From contig DATMOD010000055.1 in assembly GCA_035568355.1 (NCBI GenBank), positions 9,898 through 41,897 on the forward strand: DNA of 32,000 nt, written 5' to 3'. Below are positions 19,173-31,971 of this stretch, piece by piece (the stretch's first letter is position 1; the number at the start of each line of letters is the position of its first letter). The notes under the pieces were generated by a model. It worked only from the letters and a program-made list of their open reading frames with translations, was not told the origin of the DNA and did not search any database. The DNA is from Patescibacteria group bacterium. GTDB taxonomy: Bacteria; Patescibacteriota; Saccharimonadia; Saccharimonadales; EFPC-124. The translations under genes and the position numbers were made by a program.

Positions 19173-20228
<1,056 letters not shown>

Positions 20229-20267
20229 TCTCTCGGTTTTTTTGAATGGTTTGGCTTTGTTCTGCAC

Positions 20268-20352
20268 CGTCATCCCCGGCTATGACCGGGGATCCAGTTT
20301 GAAGGAAGAATTCCATATTTGTCCTGGATTTCCAATCAAGTTGGGAATGACG
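20268..20352. repeat. Palindromic repeat element, intergenic copy (85 bp), in opposite orientation to the argS copy
   Basis: Its reverse complement aligns with 21880-21960. The left arm matches at 25/28 positions and the right arm at 26/30. The central AT-rich loops are unrelated. Confidence 0.85.
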
Positions 20353-20443
20353 ATACAAGAGTAGAGATAGTTCTTCTAGAAGACTGTCTTCTAACAGAGA
20401 GACTTTTCTGTCTTACCGGGGTGACGGGGTAGTTGGTATACAG

Positions 20444-20449
20444 TATAAT
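20444..20449 (+). promoter_or_regulatory. -10 hexamer TATAAT 7 nt upstream of the argS ATG 20457, with a -35-like GTGACG at 20421-20426
   Basis: GTGACG, a 17-nt spacer, TATAAT, then aagcacc and ATG. No SD. Confidence 0.5.
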
Positions 20450-20456
20450 AAGCACC

Positions 20457-22247
20457 ATGTCTTATGCTGTCGAAAAACAATTGGCTGAAGTAGCCAAAAC
20501 TATCAAAAAGATACTAAGTGTTGCTGAATTGCCAGCTATAGAGATTGCGAATTCAAAGTTCGATGCCGACTTTGCTTTGCCGTGTTTTACTCTGGCACGT
20601 GATTTGCATAAAAAACCACAAGAAATTGCCGAGCAGATTGTTGTCGGGCTCAATCATCCCGTAATTGCCAAGGCAGAAGCTAAAGCCGGGTTTGTTAATC
20701 TGTGGCTGAGTGATAGCGCCCTAGGATCTGCTCTAGGTGAGATCGTAACTAAACCTACCTACGGTGCTCAAAAGCTGCTTGATAAGCAAAAGATACTTAT
20801 AGAGGTGTATTCTACCAATCCTTTCAAAGATCTACATATTGGCCATGCTTATAATTCGATCGTGGGTGATACACTGGCTAATATTTTTAAGCTAGGTGGT
20901 GCTGATCTGCATCGTGTGAGCTATGGCGGCGATGTTGGCTTGCATGTGGGCAAGAGCATGTGGGCAATCCTTCGATATCTAGAAGGAGATATTTCTAAGC
21001 TGGACGTTGTAAAGTCTGGTGACCGTCCGGCATTCTTAAGTCGCATGTATGTAGAAGGGGCTGGTCAGTACGAAGAAGATTCAATCATCCGCCAGCAAAT
21101 AGACGTACTTGCCAGACAATCTTTTGTGCAAGATGATGCGTTTTTTAAGCAGGTCTACGAGATTTGCCGACAGTGGAGTTTTGATTATATTCATAAGATG
21201 ATCAAAAAAATGGGTAGTCAGCTCGCCGAGAGGGAGTATTGGGAAAACGAGGCTGATAAACTAGGTCGCCAGATAGTCGAGACTCACATCGGTGACGTGT
21301 TTGAGCGCAGTGAAGGCGCGATTGTCTTTAAGGGCGAGACCTACGGGTTGCATACTAGGGTTTTTATTACCTCGCATGATACGACGTTGTACGAAGCGCG
21401 CGATCTTGGGCTCATGCAACTCAAAGAGCAAGAGTATAACCCAGATAAAAGTTATTATCTTACGGCCGAAGAACAACGAGACTATTTTAAGGTTGTTTTA
21501 AAAGCAGCGCAGCTAAGCCTGCCCGAGCTAAAAGACAAGTCTGTTAACATATCGACCGGTACTGTCAAATTGAGTACTGGAAAGATGAGTAGCCGTACTG
21601 GTAAGGTTGTGAATATCGAAGGTTTGTTCAAAGAACTTAGCGAGGCCTTGAAAGCTCGCGGTGCAGAAGAAGACAATCTGCAAGCCGGGATTGTTGGCGC
21701 TCTGCGCTACGCCATGTTAAAAGTGCGGATTGGCGGTGATATTATCTTTGATATTAACGAATCAATCAGCCTCGAGGGTAACTCTGGCCCATATCTGCAG
21801 TATGCTCATGCTCGTGGTCGTAGTATTTTAGCTAAGCTTGCCGATAGTTCATCGACTGAAAAGTCATCGTCTTCTTCCAGTCATCCCCGACTTGATTGGG
21901 AATCCAGTAAGAAAAAAAGTTCATTATTAACTGGATCCCCGATCGGAGTCGGGGATGACGAAACAGGAGAAAAAACGTTTGTGGACTTTACTGCCGATGA
22001 ACACAAACTGGCAATCAAAGTTCTAGAATATCCAACTATAACGGCCAAAGCTATCAGCGAATTAGCGCCGCATCATATTTGTAATTATCTTTACGAGTTG
22101 ACTCAGCAGTTCAACCGTTTTTATGAACATAATCGGATCATTGGCGACCCACGCCAAAACCAAAGGGCCGAGTTGGTTAATTCTTACTGCCAGGTCTTAG
22201 AAAATGGGCTTGGTGTGCTTGGTATTCCAGCACCAGAAAGGTTATAA
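20457..22247 (+). CDS. argS: Arginine--tRNA ligase
   Basis: Class I signature NPFKDLHIGHAYNSIVGD (HIGH), KMSSRTGK (KMSKS-like), YLQYAHARGRSIL, and a C-terminal DALR-type anticodon-binding region ending in GIPAPERL. I prefer ATG 20457. The track uses TTG 20433. Confidence 0.9.
   Translation: MSYAVEKQLAEVAKTIKKILSVAELPAIEIANSKFDADFALPCFTLARDLHKKPQEIAEQIVVGLNHPVIAKAEAKAGFVNLWLSDSALGSALGEIVTKPTYGAQKLLDKQKILIEVYSTNPFKDLHIGHAYNSIVGDTLANIFKLGGADLHRVSYGGDVGLHVGKSMWAILRYLEGDISKLDVVKSGDRPAFLSRMYVEGAGQYEEDSIIRQQIDVLARQSFVQDDAFFKQVYEICRQWSFDYIHKMIKKMGSQLAEREYWENEADKLGRQIVETHIGDVFERSEGAIVFKGETYGLHTRVFITSHDTTLYEARDLGLMQLKEQEYNPDKSYYLTAEEQRDYFKVVLKAAQLSLPELKDKSVNISTGTVKLSTGKMSSRTGKVVNIEGLFKELSEALKARGAEEDNLQAGIVGALRYAMLKVRIGGDIIFDINESISLEGNSGPYLQYAHARGRSILAKLADSSSTEKSSSSSSHPRLDWESSKKKSSLLTGSPIGVGDDETGEKTFVDFTADEHKLAIKVLEYPTITAKAISELAPHHICNYLYELTQQFNRFYEHNRIIGDPRQNQRAELVNSYCQVLENGLGVLGIPAPERL
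21880..21960. repeat. Palindromic repeat element inserted in frame inside argS (81 bp, 27 codons)
   Basis: GTCATCCCCGACTTGATTGGGAATCCAG, a 23-nt AT-rich loop, then CTGGATCCCCGATCGGAGTCGGGGATGACG. The arms pair over about 28 bp with 3 G.T pairs, 1 mismatch and 1 bulge. The element encodes (S)HPRLDWESSKKKSSLLTGSPIGVGDD(E). Confidence 0.85.
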
Positions 22248-22250
22248 CCT

Positions 22251-22811
22251 GTGGTTGATTTAAAACGTGTTACCCCCGATAAAATACTCTGGTTAGATTT
22301 AGAGATGACCGGCCTAAATCCTGAAAAAGACAGGATTGTTGAGGTGGCGGCGATGGTCACGGATTGGCAATTTAAAGAGCTAGAGACTTTTGAGAGCTTA
22401 ATTGCTCACGATGCAAAAGAGATAGAGGCTCTAATTAACGCTAACCCGTGGTATAAAAAATTTCCTCAGCACAAAACAGACTTTTTAAAAGCAGCGACTC
22501 ACGGTATGGCGGAGATAGAGGTGCAGAAGCAATTACTAGAGCTGATTAACCGCCATTTCGCCCCAAACATGCCAGCCTTACTAGCTGGTAACTCAATCCA
22601 CTGTGATCGTGGTTTTATTAAACAGTGGTGGCCGGATGTAGATGCTAGATTACATTACCGCATGCTAGATGTTAGCGCCTGGAAGGTAGTTATGATTGCC
22701 AAATATAACCGGCAATACCAAAAGAAAGAAACTCATCGAGCAATGTCTGATGTGTGTGAATCAATCGCCGAATTGCAATACTATCTTGAAAGCTGTTCGT
22801 CTACAAAATAG
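22251..22811 (+). CDS. orn: Oligoribonuclease
   Basis: LWLDLEMTGLNPEKDRIVEVAAMVTD (ExoI), GNSIHCDRGFI (ExoII) and HRAMSDVCESIAELQYY (ExoIII). The start is GTG. Confidence 0.9.
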   Translation: MVDLKRVTPDKILWLDLEMTGLNPEKDRIVEVAAMVTDWQFKELETFESLIAHDAKEIEALINANPWYKKFPQHKTDFLKAATHGMAEIEVQKQLLELINRHFAPNMPALLAGNSIHCDRGFIKQWWPDVDARLHYRMLDVSAWKVVMIAKYNRQYQKKETHRAMSDVCESIAELQYYLESCSSTK

Positions 22812-22822
22812 CTTATATTGCG

Positions 22823-22868
22823 CAACCCTCGATCAGGTCGGGGGCAGGCTTTGATTTGGGCATCCAGG
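22823..22868. repeat. Degenerate or partial copy of the palindromic repeat family
   Basis: ACCCTCGATCAGGTCGGGGG resembles the right-arm end CCCCGATCGGAGTCGGGG. TTTGATTTGGGCATCCAG resembles the left-arm core CTTGATTGGGAATCCAG. The order is permuted relative to full copies. Confidence 0.5.
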
Positions 22869-22892
22869 ATAAAAACGATTTCTTATAAATCC

Positions 22893-25800
22893 TTATAACC
22901 CAGGTGTCGTAACGGTAGTAGACGGTGTAGTGGCTGGAGTAGTCGTAGGTACAGAATTAGTTACCGGCGCTGTTATGGTTGTAACTGGTGCGGTAGTGGC
23001 TGCTGGGGTAGCCGAGGGTGTGCTAGCAGCCGGAACCGACTGCACTTGCTTTAGTTGATCCTGAGTTTGTTTAAGCTGAGTTTCTAATTGTGTTTGGGTG
23101 TCTTTAAGCTGCTGTAGCTGGGCATTTACATCACCTTTTAATTGTTGAATGTTACCGTCGAGCTGTTGTTTATAGGCATTAAATTGCTGTTGTATGGCAG
23201 CGGCTTTGGCAACGAATTCGTCTGACAATTGTTGCTCGTACTGTCTAAACTGATCCTGGTTGAACTGGAGTGTGCTTGGTATGCTCGACCAATTAACTGA
23301 GGCATCTATTAGATGACTGATTTGTGCCTGAGCGGTCACCTGTGTTTGATTTATAGCAGACACACTTGTCTTTAGCTGATTAACATCGGCTGATAACCCA
23401 TCTACTTGAGTTTTTGTATCAGACTGAGCTTTTTGTAAAACGGCTATTGGTTGTGCTAGCTGATTTCTTAAATCCACTGTGGCCTGAGCCTGAGCATTTA
23501 GTTGTATCTGAGTACCAAGCTGGACATTCTGTATATCTGTTATAGCATTCTTGACCTGGCCAACACTACCACCTAGGGCAGCTAGGTCTAATTTAATCTG
23601 AGACTGGCCCGCATTTAGCTCACCGATAGCCTGGCGAACTTGGGTACTCAGTGCAGCTATGCCGTCATTCATCTGTGTTTGAGCAGTGATTTGGGCTGAA
23701 TGAATAGCATCGATTGACTGCTGTAATTCTGATCGAGCTGTTTTAGTGTCTGCGATATTACTTTTGATTTGCTGTCCGGCTTGATCCAAAATTGCCTGGA
23801 CATCTTTAAGTTGTTGAGTTAGTGATACGCTCCCGACAGCAAGATTCTGCATTTTACTGTCGGCCTTATCTTGAGCGGCTTGCAATACGTTAATAGAAGC
23901 CTGCATTTGATCTTTTAGCACTTGTTTGTCGTTAATCTGATCGTTTAGGTTGCTCAGCAACTGTGCTTGAGCCGTCTTGATGCCATTAACTTGTTGATTA
24001 GTGGCGTCGTTGAGTTGACTGTGTAGTGCACTGACATCATTGAGCTGCTTTTGCATGGCGCTCACGGCTGCAGTTTGGTTAGAAGTCACTTGGTTGACGG
24101 CATTAGTAGTATCAGTCTTTAGGGCGGCGTAAGTTGTAGCTGAAAGGCTTAGTTTGGCTTGCAAGCCTGCAATTTGATTGGCCTGGGCAACCAGTGCTTG
24201 TTCTAGCTGGCCCTGAGTACTAGCTGTTGCGCTACCGGCGCTAGCAAGTTGGTTTTGTAGGCTGGTGATATTCTGATTTGTTGTTTGTTGGATAGAATCA
24301 AGCGAACTAGATAGGCTAGATAATTGGCTGGTTGCTCCTTGCTGAGCACTGTTCACAGCACCAAGGCTGGATTGGATGGTGGCCAAAGTTTGGGTTTGAG
24401 CTGCCTGAGCACTAGCAACTGATTGCTGCAATGTTTGCTGCAGGGCATTATTGGCGATTACATATTGGCCGAGCTTGTTCTGGGCGTCGGTAGCGCTGCT
24501 AAGGGATTGTTTTAAGGCGTCTTTTAATGCAGCTACCTGGGCAGTTGTAGCGTCGTTGGTATTGCCGAGTGCTGCTAGCTTGCTATTAAATGTTTGTTGC
24601 ACGTTGGCCAATTCTTTGGTAAGGTCGGGCACTATGGCTTGTGGCGTGGTGGGGGTACTAGTGGCAGTAATAAGTTGCTGTTGTATGGTGGCCATTTGCT
24701 TGGCAACGTCGGCACGGATGGAGTCTACGCTTTGTGTAGCTAATGGGGCTATAAGTGGTGTAGTAATTTGGGCTAGTGTGGCGGTGGCGGTATTGGCTAT
24801 GGCCTCTACGGTGGCAAAAGACTTAAGGTCCTTGGCTTGTTGCTGAAAATCACCTTGGGTTGCGGTAACCTGTGAACTTGTCCAGCCTGGAGGCAAGGCC
24901 AGGTAGGACATGCCTGAGCGTACCGAATTTAATATCTCTAGCTGTACTCGCTGCATTAGATCATAATTGCCGGTAACAGCACTTGTTAGCTGTAAGACTT
25001 GGCCAAATAATTGTTTGGCGTCGGTTGTGGCGGTTTGCCCAGCAGTTAGAGGCTTCCAGGCGTCGTAAAGTATTTTGCGTACAGGGCTTAGAGAGTTAGG
25101 GTCCAATTTTGATAGATCATCTGCCAGGTTAGGTGTTATATTCAAGCCATAAACAAGTGGCATAATGTAGGAACGGCTGGCGTCGCGAGGCAAGAGTTGT
25201 CCAAATTTATAACTGGTTAGATAGTCTTTGATCATTTGTTTTTGCTGGGCAGTCGGTATAATCATCTTGGCGAAAATCGCTACTTTGCGTAGTTCGTCAA
25301 ACTCTACGCTGGCCGTAAAGCGAGGTGCATCCTTAGGGGCAAGCTCAGTGACAAGGTCGTAGTTGATGGCATAAATTGCGCTGGATGGTACTTGCCCAGA
25401 CTCGGCTAGGCCACGAACTGTCGTCAGCAACTGGCGGTTGGATGTAGCCTTGGTAAATAGATTGGTTAGTTCGTCGTGGGTTAAGAACCCTTGGCTGACC
25501 AGTTTGGTGAGCTGTGTAACGTCGGTGGGCGAGACAGGGGATTTGCCCAGAGCATCTTGCACGGTTGCCAAACTACTCTGCACAGTATTAATAGCTTGCA
25601 ATACAGAAGCCTGAGCTTCGGGTGGCGCATTCAACCGTAGTTTTTCGAGTGTCATGTAAGTATTGACCATGCCTGTTTCGGCCCACTTAGATTTGTCTTG
25701 GGGTGGCTTTATGCCCTGATCGATTAAATGGCTAAAAGATGATATTTGATCGTTAAAAGTTTGGTTAAATTCGCCTAATAAATTCTGAATGTTTTGGGCA

Positions 25801-26165
25801 TCTTTGGTTTGCTGCGAGGCTGATTCTTGGGGCATCCTATCCGCTACAACTGACGCTTCTTTAACTCGATTGGTGGCAGCATTAAAGTTGGCATCGGTTT
25901 TAGCATTTTGACCTATAGCTAACGCTATACCTACTTGCTCGGCCGCACGTTTAACAGGATAAGCAAAATCTTCAGGTGCCTTGGCTTGAGCTGCCATAGC
26001 GCCTAGCGATAGAACTAGCACCCCTATACCGCCGGCAAGATACCATTTATAACGATGTAACCAAGCTCGCCATTTCGGCTTCGACTTTGCTTTTGTGCCC
26101 TCAACATGTATTTGTTTTTTGTGAGACTTACGGTGCTTTGGCCAAAGCTTTTTGATTGCAGACAT
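22893..26165 (-). CDS. Giant membrane-anchored fibrous protein: basic N-tail, TM helix, globular region, ~560-aa Q/N/S/T/A-rich helical low-complexity region, Pro/Thr-rich C-terminal tail
   Basis: The 1090-aa ORF starts with a basic tail, MSAIKKLWPKHRKSHKK. The TM helix is WYLAGGIGVLVLSLGAMAAQA. PEDFAYPVKRAAEQVGIALA resembles the DUF5667-type module (from memory). From about aa 480 to 1040 the sequence is degenerate LxxQ/AQ-rich with very few charged or aromatic residues and no Cys. The tail is SVPAASTPSATPAATTAPVTTITAPVTNSVPTTTPATTPSTTVTTPGL. Confidence 0.8.
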   Translation of the reverse strand: MSAIKKLWPKHRKSHKKQIHVEGTKAKSKPKWRAWLHRYKWYLAGGIGVLVLSLGAMAAQAKAPEDFAYPVKRAAEQVGIALAIGQNAKTDANFNAATNRVKEASVVADRMPQESASQQTKDAQNIQNLLGEFNQTFNDQISSFSHLIDQGIKPPQDKSKWAETGMVNTYMTLEKLRLNAPPEAQASVLQAINTVQSSLATVQDALGKSPVSPTDVTQLTKLVSQGFLTHDELTNLFTKATSNRQLLTTVRGLAESGQVPSSAIYAINYDLVTELAPKDAPRFTASVEFDELRKVAIFAKMIIPTAQQKQMIKDYLTSYKFGQLLPRDASRSYIMPLVYGLNITPNLADDLSKLDPNSLSPVRKILYDAWKPLTAGQTATTDAKQLFGQVLQLTSAVTGNYDLMQRVQLEILNSVRSGMSYLALPPGWTSSQVTATQGDFQQQAKDLKSFATVEAIANTATATLAQITTPLIAPLATQSVDSIRADVAKQMATIQQQLITATSTPTTPQAIVPDLTKELANVQQTFNSKLAALGNTNDATTAQVAALKDALKQSLSSATDAQNKLGQYVIANNALQQTLQQSVASAQAAQTQTLATIQSSLGAVNSAQQGATSQLSSLSSSLDSIQQTTNQNITSLQNQLASAGSATASTQGQLEQALVAQANQIAGLQAKLSLSATTYAALKTDTTNAVNQVTSNQTAAVSAMQKQLNDVSALHSQLNDATNQQVNGIKTAQAQLLSNLNDQINDKQVLKDQMQASINVLQAAQDKADSKMQNLAVGSVSLTQQLKDVQAILDQAGQQIKSNIADTKTARSELQQSIDAIHSAQITAQTQMNDGIAALSTQVRQAIGELNAGQSQIKLDLAALGGSVGQVKNAITDIQNVQLGTQIQLNAQAQATVDLRNQLAQPIAVLQKAQSDTKTQVDGLSADVNQLKTSVSAINQTQVTAQAQISHLIDASVNWSSIPSTLQFNQDQFRQYEQQLSDEFVAKAAAIQQQFNAYKQQLDGNIQQLKGDVNAQLQQLKDTQTQLETQLKQTQDQLKQVQSVPAASTPSATPAATTAPVTTITAPVTNSVPTTTPATTPSTTVTTPGL

Positions 26166-27215: not shown

Positions 27216-27254
27216 CACTGGGCTTACTTAAGGCTACATTCTGGCCCATTGTCA

Positions 27255-27375
27255 GCTGAGACGCCTGGCCATGCACTTTTTAATAACCACGAGCTGTCTA
27301 CCCTTGATCTGATAATTAAGATCGGTGTTTCGTTAAAGAGAGGTTATTAAAAAGTGCATGGCCAGGCGTCTCAGC
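27255..27375. repeat. Long hairpin element, copy 1 (121 nt): perfect 34-bp outer stem, conserved asymmetric internal loop, variable apical hairpin
   Basis: GCTGAGACGCCTGGCCATGCACTTTTTAATAACC (27255-27288) is the exact reverse complement of 27342-27375. The core ATGCAyTTTTTnATAACCACGAGCTGTCTACC ... TGTTTCGTTAAAGAGnGGTTATnwAAAArTGCAT is shared with 31861-31971. Confidence 0.85.
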
Positions 27376-27412
27376 TCTATGTAATCCCACTGATGTACAA
27401 TAGAGGTCAAAT

Positions 27413-31860: not shown

Positions 31861-31971
31861 CCTAACCCATATGCATTTTTTCATAACCACGAGCTGTCTA
31901 CCACTTAATGTAATACTTAAAGACTAATGTTTCGTTAAAGAGTGGTTATGTAAAAATGCATATGGGTTAGG
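31861..31971. repeat. Long hairpin element, copy 2 (111 nt)
   Basis: CCTAACCCATATGCATTTTTTCATAACCA (31861-31889) pairs with TGGTTATGTAAAAATGCATATGGGTTAGG (31943-31971) at 28 of 29 positions. The conserved core is the same as in copy 1. The outermost stem and the apical region differ. Confidence 0.85.

Follow-up and report, generated by a model that had tools for sequence, protein, structure and literature searches.

Palindromic repeats that sit in frame inside essential genes, where they are tolerated as extra surface segments of the protein, were reportedly described in Rickettsia by Ogata et al. in 2000. The element considered here, W1, is a palindrome within argS, the arginyl-tRNA synthetase (ArgRS) gene, in a stretch of 32,000 nt (32 kb; "the window") of contig DATMOD010000055.1 from a Patescibacteria group bacterium of the Saccharimonadia. 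An earlier note, made from the sequence of the window alone, had drawn attention to it as a selfish-type repeat. Our analysis indicates that the argS hairpin is very probably a non-autonomous mobile repeat, an inverted dimer of CGTC-tagged repetitive extragenic palindromic (REP) units, which inserted in frame and is tolerated as a disordered loop.

The closest described relatives are the CGTC-tagged REPs, defined as a superfamily by Di Nocera, De Gregorio and Rocco in 2013 (BMC Genomics 14:522, PMC3733652). According to that paper, the units carry an unpaired CGTC or TGTC tag (CCTC is accepted), a stem of 8-9 bp starting with A-T and T-A, a loop of 4-5 nt and a 3-nt unpaired CCA tail, and they occur mostly as inverted dimers with spacers of 20-100 bp. 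The paper also describes, in several species, mostly dimeric CGTC and GTAG repeats lying within tRNA synthetase, truB and uvr genes, where they encode 20-30 aa, and different REPs at about the same site of Xanthomonas recB genes. Neisseria dRS3 is counted there as CGTC-1, and the Rickettsia palindromic elements (RPEs) RPE-6 and RPE-4 as CGTC-1 and CGTC-4; the hosts that it lists are Proteobacteria, Chlorobi, Bacteroidetes, Spirochaetes and Thermotogae, with no Candidate Phyla Radiation (CPR)/Patescibacteria among them. In Neisseria, dRS3 (20 bp, ATTCCC-N8-GGGAAT) flanks RS segments to form Neisseria intergenic mosaic elements, or NIMEs (Bentley et al. 2007, PMC1797815), and the sequence ATTCCCGCGCAGGCGGGAATC has been treated as a REP doublet forming a hairpin (REPIN) replicated by a Group 2 REP-associated tyrosine transposase, or RAYT (Bertels and Rainey, bioRxiv 10.1101/2021.07.10.451892).

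The hairpin in argS and the ArgRS loop

The gene and the parts of the element are as follows.

20457-22247, + strand: argS, arginyl-tRNA synthetase of 596 aa with ATG at 20457; intact open reading frame (ORF), identified by Pfam domains, homologues and an AlphaFold2 (AF2) model
21880-21959, + strand: W1, in-frame inverted dimer of two CGTC-type REP units (REPIN-like), encoding S475-D501
21880-21907, + strand: W1 left unit, 28 nt, GTC-ATCCCCGA-CTTGA-TTGGGAAT-CCAG, from a unit hidden Markov model (HMM) and reading of the sequence
21908-21930, + strand: A/T-rich spacer of W1, TAAGAAAAAAAGTTCATTATTAA, 23 nt
21931-21959, - strand: W1 right unit, 29 nt, reading GTC-ATCCCCGA-CTCCGA-TCGGGGAT-CCAG on the minus strand and preceded by a C that completes the CGTC tag
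21863-21880, + strand: putative truncated fifth unit, GTCAT-CGTCTTCT-TCCAG, adjoining W1 and encoding an SSSSSS run

Along the + strand W1 reads GTCATCCCCGACTTGATTGGGAATCCAG (left unit), spacer, CTGGATCCCCGATCGGAGTCGGGGATGAC (right unit), 28 + 23 + 29 = 80 nt in all, and with one flanking base it makes up the 27 codons S475-D501, whose peptide is HPRLDWESSKKKSSLLTGSPIGVGDD; the place of the palindrome, the 27 codons and the peptide are all as had been claimed for it. The stem of the left unit has eight positions, including one mismatch and one G.T wobble, around a CTTGA loop of 5 nt, and that of the right unit has 8 bp, perfectly paired, around a CTCCGA loop of 6 nt. The RNA minimum free energy (MFE) of the 91-nt stretch around W1 is -47.5 kcal/mol, in one long hairpin, compared with -21.1 +/- 3.1 for shuffled sequences (z -8.4), and none of 200 shuffles folds as well. 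W1 scores 87.8 bits with a covariance model (R1) built from 16 dimers, and its left unit is detected by the unit HMM at E = 7e-4.

The argS ORF carries the three ArgRS Pfam domains (Arg_tRNA_synt_N, tRNA-synt_1d and DALR_1) and has thousands of ArgS homologues, the best 120 of which served as the comparison set. The segment is absent from 118 of these 120, including the closest proteins (P0002-P0015; 55-66% identity, 556-568 aa). The order argS-orn-DUF5667-YjbR-dnaG-rpoD is kept in the two closest relatives, loci L126 and L127, and in both of them argS is uninterrupted. Thus a multi-copy palindromic family member lies in frame in an otherwise intact argS and is absent from its closest orthologues, as had been proposed.

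Two statements about the position of the insert needed correction. The DALR_1 match covers ArgS residues 447-596 for a 117-position profile, and the insert lies inside this domain, past its first helix, rather than before the anticodon-binding domain. Moreover, removing the 27 residues does not bring the linker back to a typical length: the stretch from QYAHAR to E[LM]xPH measures 41-44 aa in 97 of the 120 homologues and 81 aa in the window, the longest of all, and after subtraction about 11 extra residues are left, partly the Ser run from the truncated unit. An alignment to ArgRS of P. horikoshii (2ZUE) likewise breaks at the insert, with query residues 464-507 opposite chain residues 524-538.

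The AF2 model of ArgS, made from an alignment of 26 sequences, has a mean predicted local distance difference test score (pLDDT) of 89.4 and a predicted template modelling score of 0.88. Its sole long segment with pLDDT below 50 is residues 473-505, between helices 444-470 and 513-523; the insert is probably a floppy or disordered loop on the surface of ArgRS. The intact frame suggests that the insert is translated, in which case a tryptic peptide spanning it would be SSLLTGSPIGVGDDETGEK; the insert would be neutral for the protein.

Other insertions are seen at the same ArgS linker. P0105, 48% identical to the window protein, has a different insert of about 35 aa there (L003, 11351-11536); its DNA is G+C-rich, with a GGGGCAAAGCCCC hairpin and -70.6 kcal/mol over 186 nt, shows nothing that can be recognised as a CGTC unit, and may stem from another repeat or from one that has decayed. 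Smaller inserts occur at this linker in P0120 and P0003. Together these three proteins suggest that the ArgRS loop is a general insertion hot spot.

Family members in the window and in other bacteria

Two further sites in the window have been connected with W1.

20269-20351, - strand: W2, another dimer of the family, between rfbB and argS, oriented opposite to W1 and with a different spacer of 26 nt
22815-22868, + strand: TTGCGCAAC, a CCCTCGA..TCGGGGG hairpin and ..TTGATTTGGGCATCCAGG in the spacer between orn and DUF5667, possibly what is left of a decayed copy

W1 and W2 share about 80% identity, whichever orientation is taken. Their inverted arm matches are 28 nt at 89% (25/28, the figure previously given for that arm) and, for the other arm, 44 nt at 80%. 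W2 scores 72.9 bits with R1, and the z of its fold is -6.6 for the minus and -4.2 for the plus strand. It lies past the rfbB-like gene, flanked by a terminator-like site (20219-20240) and a promoter-like site (20421-20449), and would be an ordinary intergenic member of the family. The unit HMM, built from foreign genomes only, finds exactly four units in the 32 kb, those of W1 and W2 (E = 7e-4, 0.01, 0.9 and 3.4). A scan for GTCAT-N(5-24)-TCCAG finds the same four and, as the sole further match in 64 kb (both strands), GTCATCGTCTTCTTCCAG at 21863-21880; since it adjoins W1, we infer a truncated fifth unit, a reading that falls short of statistical certainty. An independent Logan assembly (L001) is 100% identical to the window over 20041-23633, and therefore the W1/W2 arrangement is not an accident of assembly.

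The earlier note had also placed a degenerate copy after orn, at 22823-22868. This stretch gives no match with the unit HMM or with R1 run with its filters off, and its fold has a z of only -0.86. At the orthologous site, the TTGCGCAAC flank is followed in L127 by a weak unit (E 0.4), and in L126 the spacer is empty and 21 nt long; on the L127 site, its sole support, 22815-22868 is possibly a remnant of the family. A candidate copy at 478-505 from the internal repeat search (family D2) was rejected, with a fold z of -0.63 and no HMM match.

The surroundings of these sites yielded some observations of their own. Comparing window 20229-20456 with L126 9945-10000 and L127 9817-10000, we found that the gene upstream of argS is an rfbB-like dehydratase in the window and pyrG in both relatives, with downstream synteny kept, which places the W2 dimer at a rearrangement breakpoint. 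The corresponding spacer of L127 holds a copy of a second repeat family (described below) instead of W2. In at least three unrelated contexts (L154 10170-10178, the flank of the uvrC insert in L131, L127 14111-14119 and window 22815-22823), CGTC units are bordered, immediately beyond their GAC end, by the 9-mer GTTGCGCAA or a near variant. Within this 9-mer, TTGCGCAA is a palindrome, and W2 has GGTGCAGAA at the same position; this flank could be part of an extended element consensus or a target preference. L154 was considered as a uvrC orthologue of L131 and rejected, as tblastn finds no uvrC in it; it is not an orn spacer either.

Outside the window, we scanned genome contigs, one genome per species, with a pattern taken from the W1 element and obtained at least 120 loci. 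The matches listed come from Nitrospirota, Pseudomonadota (all classes), Parcubacteria, Paceibacteria, Armatimonadota, Planctomycetota, Dehalococcoidia, Gemmatimonadota and others, and nearly all of them are inverted dimers of GTCATTCCCGCGAAAGCGGGAATCCAG-like units around a variable spacer of 15-35 nt. This direct scan puts the family in many phyla beyond the five listed in 2013. GTC is preceded by C or T in 301 of 318 units (C 171, T 130, A 12, G 5), giving the CGTC/TGTC tag. Pairing in the 8-bp stem is 96% across 95 distinct 27-nt units, and the stem covaries, with 76 compensatory double changes where 16.7 are expected, a number reached in 0 of 500 shuffles. The CTTGA-loop variant occurs in other phyla (for example L032, L043, L070 and L157), and few units of the cross-phylum sample are commoner than the Neisseria REPIN master sequence.

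A metagenome scan with a spacer-specific pattern gave 64 loci. With few exceptions these are true dimers whose A-rich spacers resemble one another, such as L157 between rplJ and rplL and L190 next to folD. Spacers like that of W1 recur at L139, L140, L142, L157, L165, L173, L179 and L182, and at the DNA level W1 is homologous to dozens of intergenic copies. When applied to the two relatives, R1 finds dimers after groEL in L126 (623-705, 47 bits) and L127 (692-768, 30 bits), neither of which is in the model and both of which are visibly decaying. We offer these as support for the proposed origin of W1, as they suggest a repeat family mobile in the lineage of the window. One locus, L074 2589-3021 (an Azospirillaceae metagenome-assembled genome), carries four tandem CGTC dimers that repeat every 124 nt, a NIME-like array in which each dimer is a heterodimer of a GCGAAAGC-loop unit and a CCCCGATCAAGTCGGGG unit; CGTC clusters are described as rare outside Neisseria and Wolbachia by Di Nocera et al. 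(PMC3733652).

Among about 170 distinct dimers surveyed for in-frame copies, with Pfam domains on both sides of the insert or spanning it, we found the following.

L021 (Sphingomonadales): in-frame dimer in IleRS
L112: in-frame dimer in UvrA
L131, from a relative of the window organism: in-frame dimer in UvrC
L031: in-frame dimer in an SLT transglycosylase
L043: in-frame dimer in a radical SAM protein
L012 (Parcubacteria): in-frame dimer in Tgt
L015: in-frame dimer in TruB

L131 is taken to come from a relative because the second repeat family of the window is present there too, and its uvrC gene holds the copy nearest to W1 (86%). On new genomes, this gene set repeats the 2013 target list of tRNA synthetases, truB and uvr genes (PMC3733652). 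A single capped word search among proteins with the peptide of W1 met no candidate with three shared 5-mers, an outcome of no weight either way.

The idea that the argS segment is an ordinary lineage-specific linker, or an assembly artefact, and resembles W2 by chance draws on the fact that the length of this ArgS linker varies, with other insertions there in P0105, P0120 and P0003. It is effectively refuted, and we give it next to no credence: the segment is recognised at E = 7e-4 by a family HMM made without the genome of the window, it folds at a z of -8.4, its DNA is homologous to dozens of intergenic copies, and the Logan assembly holds the identical sequence.

Another reading is that the W1 hairpin now serves as a signal in cis, at the RNA or DNA level (for example for translational pausing, RNase cleavage or recombination), the protein part being incidental. 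The hairpin does have a high stability (-46 kcal/mol) within the mRNA of an essential gene, and the background given in PMC3733652 sums up REPs as presumed to influence mRNA stability and termination. On the other hand, sense and antisense fold equally well in four of four copies tested (MFE -46.1/-44.7, -33.5/-33.2, -31.5/-32.5 and -35.2/-37.5 kcal/mol), the close relatives do without the element, and the family inserts in many unrelated genes at unrelated sites. Rfam, moreover, has no family for this palindrome or for the second one of the window, giving only generic miRNA-precursor hairpin matches well below gathering scores. A signal role thus appears highly improbable. The equal folding of both strands gives no sign of RNA-specific G.U selection or of a role at the RNA level, and we therefore rejected G.U wobble or strand asymmetry as something that shaped the element; the three transitions and one indel by which the arms differ are as first noted, while the RNA-level role proposed along with them was not borne out.

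Origin of the insertion

The element is found in a second, distant ArgS. P0106 (locus L002, 48-49% identity) has GTCGTTCCGGGCTCCGACCCGGAATCCAG-spacer-CTGGATTCCCCAATCGAGTTGGGGAATGAC in the linker where W1 lies in the window, with the orientation and frame of W1 and with both units TGTC-tagged. The earlier note had held that a homologous segment in ArgS orthologues of unrelated lineages would mark it as ancestral protein sequence; the absence of the segment from 118 of 120 homologues speaks for an insertion, and P0106 (48%) is, formally, such an orthologue, which we read as a parallel case. A single ancient insertion, in the common ancestor of the window and L002 lineages, would have been lost nearly everywhere and kept in two, perhaps as something useful. 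Such an ancestry would account for the same family, linker, orientation and frame in two proteins only 48-49% identical, and for element DNA that, at 79% identity, is more conserved than the flanking coding sequence.

Four lines of evidence nevertheless make us favour parallel insertion of the same mobile family, and regard a shared ancient origin as unlikely. The 118 homologues that lack the element include every sequence intermediate in similarity between the two lineages. Each argS copy is closer to a copy outside argS (86% to the L131 uvrC copy for the window, 85% to the L157 rplJ-rplL spacer copy for L002) than to the other argS copy (79%). The spacing between the element and the conserved motifs on its two sides is not the same either, at 15 and 12 aa in the window vs 4 and 6 aa in L002. 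Finally, there is precedent in PMC3733652, where Xanthomonas recB genes carry different REPs at about the same site.

On the favoured reading, a member of a putative repeat population in the Saccharimonadia lineage would have entered the DALR domain of ArgRS at the loop that joins its first two helices, probably as single-stranded DNA folded into a hairpin, on which a tyrosine HUH transposase of the RAYT or IS200-IS605 type acted. It would have survived because the element with its adjoining bases keeps the reading frame, because the frame in use has no stop codon, and because the site tolerates extra residues. The insert would then be part of the argS transcript and would add about 27 residues (at most 33 with the truncated unit) to the protein, as a disordered surface loop with no required function.

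Several observations weigh against this account. No transposase of any kind is encoded among the genes of the window, and tblastn with E. coli RayT at E <= 1 gave no match in the window or in 1.32 Mb of flanks of about 190 dimers, where only about two matches would be expected by chance capture, so that this absence counts for little. Likewise, PMC3733652 reports no transposase linked to CGTC repeats. Because no linked transposase is seen in the window, in the flanks or in this literature, the RAYT step is proposed by analogy only; mobilisation of a single-stranded hairpin in the manner of RAYT is the best available analogy because Neisseria repeats have been assigned to RAYT by Bertels and Rainey. 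In addition, the window holds only two intact copies, with spacers unlike each other, and the presence of the element in the same linker of a second, distant ArgS could mean site preference or selective retention rather than neutrality.

It is conceivable, if doubtful, that CGTC-type REP dimers are actively mobile in ultra-small CPR genomes without RAYT, and that the same ArgRS loop has been repeatedly hit or retained in separate Saccharimonadia lineages. If this is true, a mobilising activity would be encoded among the about 1000 genes of such a genome or come from a host or phage, or there would be a selected role in ArgRS; small CPR genomes would then be the best place to find the CGTC mobiliser by gene co-occurrence. 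More generally, genomes of about 1 Mb that still carry CGTC repeats offer a small search space for the mobilising gene. For annotation, segments such as LDSRLRGND, WIPAFAGMT and SFPRKRES in conserved proteins are to be taken as repeat-derived and not as lineage-specific functional motifs.

Two other features of the region deserve mention. A second, unrelated palindromic family occurs in the window at 27254-27376 and 31861-31971, in L127 at 3848(+), 9916(-) and 752(-, partial), and in L131 at 561(+). All copies are intergenic and share a conserved inner core, ATAACCACGAGCTGTCTACC ... GTTTCGTTAAAGAGnGGTTAT, enclosed by outer stems of 20-35 bp whose sequence varies between copies with complementarity kept; copy A of the window has 35-nt arms that are 100% complementary (-76 kcal/mol). 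This is the reverse of a miniature inverted-repeat transposable element, in which the ends are the conserved part, and the family may be a structured RNA or a recombination site. Directly downstream of orn, 22893-26165 (- strand) encodes a DUF5667 protein of 1090 aa, with a very long Gln/Ala/Thr-rich, low-complexity, coiled-coil-like region, which is 74-78% identical in both relatives.

Comparison with known systems

The phenomenon itself is already documented, in Rickettsia, in Neisseria relatives and in other bacteria, and beyond the points made on host, annotation and mobiliser the argS hairpin is an ordinary example of it. What is apparently new is the CPR/Saccharimonadia host, argS as the target and the seemingly parallel hit in a second lineage, by which the range of the CGTC superfamily and its in-frame habit in essential genes extend to CPR/Patescibacteria. 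The claim of novelty in the earlier note appears to hold for the host, since no report of such repeats in CPR turned up in the literature searched; it does not hold for in-frame insertion, published in 2013 (PMC3733652).

Set against the description of the CGTC superfamily, the right unit of W1 and both units of W2 have the CGTC tag, and the left unit of W1 has AGTC. The stems are of 8-9 bp with A-T and then T-A, that of the W1 left unit being imperfect. Loops measure 5 nt (W1 left), 6 nt (W1 right) and 5-6 nt (W2), compared with 4-5 nt. All four units in the window end in CCAG, and both W1 and W2 are inverted dimers with tags outside and spacers of 23 and 26 nt. Further differences lie in the host phylum and in the target, argS not being among the targets named in the available text of PMC3733652.

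Rickettsia RPEs resemble W1 functionally, as in-frame palindromes in ORFs whose orthologues lack the palindrome. This comparison, first made as an analogy, goes further, as PMC3733652 places RPE-4, RPE-6 and dRS3 in the CGTC superfamily to which the features of W1 point. At the same time, the classic RPE-1 is about 100-150 bp long and a separate family, and the hosts are obligate intracellular alphaproteobacteria.

Pseudomonas and E. coli REPINs are, like W1, two inverted REPs that form one long hairpin, non-autonomous, vertically inherited and slowly decaying, and the decayed orthologous copies in L126 and L127 match this style of decay. They differ in having a GTAG tag and not CGTC, in being mobilised by RAYT and in being described as extragenic. 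The Neisseria dRS3/NIME system shares with W1 the ATTCCC-N-GGGAAT type of unit, inverted around a short, A/T-richer spacer. However, the units in the window read ATCCCC-N9-GGGAAT, ATTCCC-N9-GGAAAT and ATCCCC-N10-GGGGAT and so depart from the dRS3 sequence, with 9-10 nt between the hexamers instead of 8; arrays and a RAYT are not visible in the window, and NIMEs are intergenic. Because one loop is of 6 nt and the spacing is unlike that of dRS3 proper, we assign the window element, on its sequence, to the CGTC superfamily, with an architecture of the REPIN/NIME type, and not to dRS3 itself.

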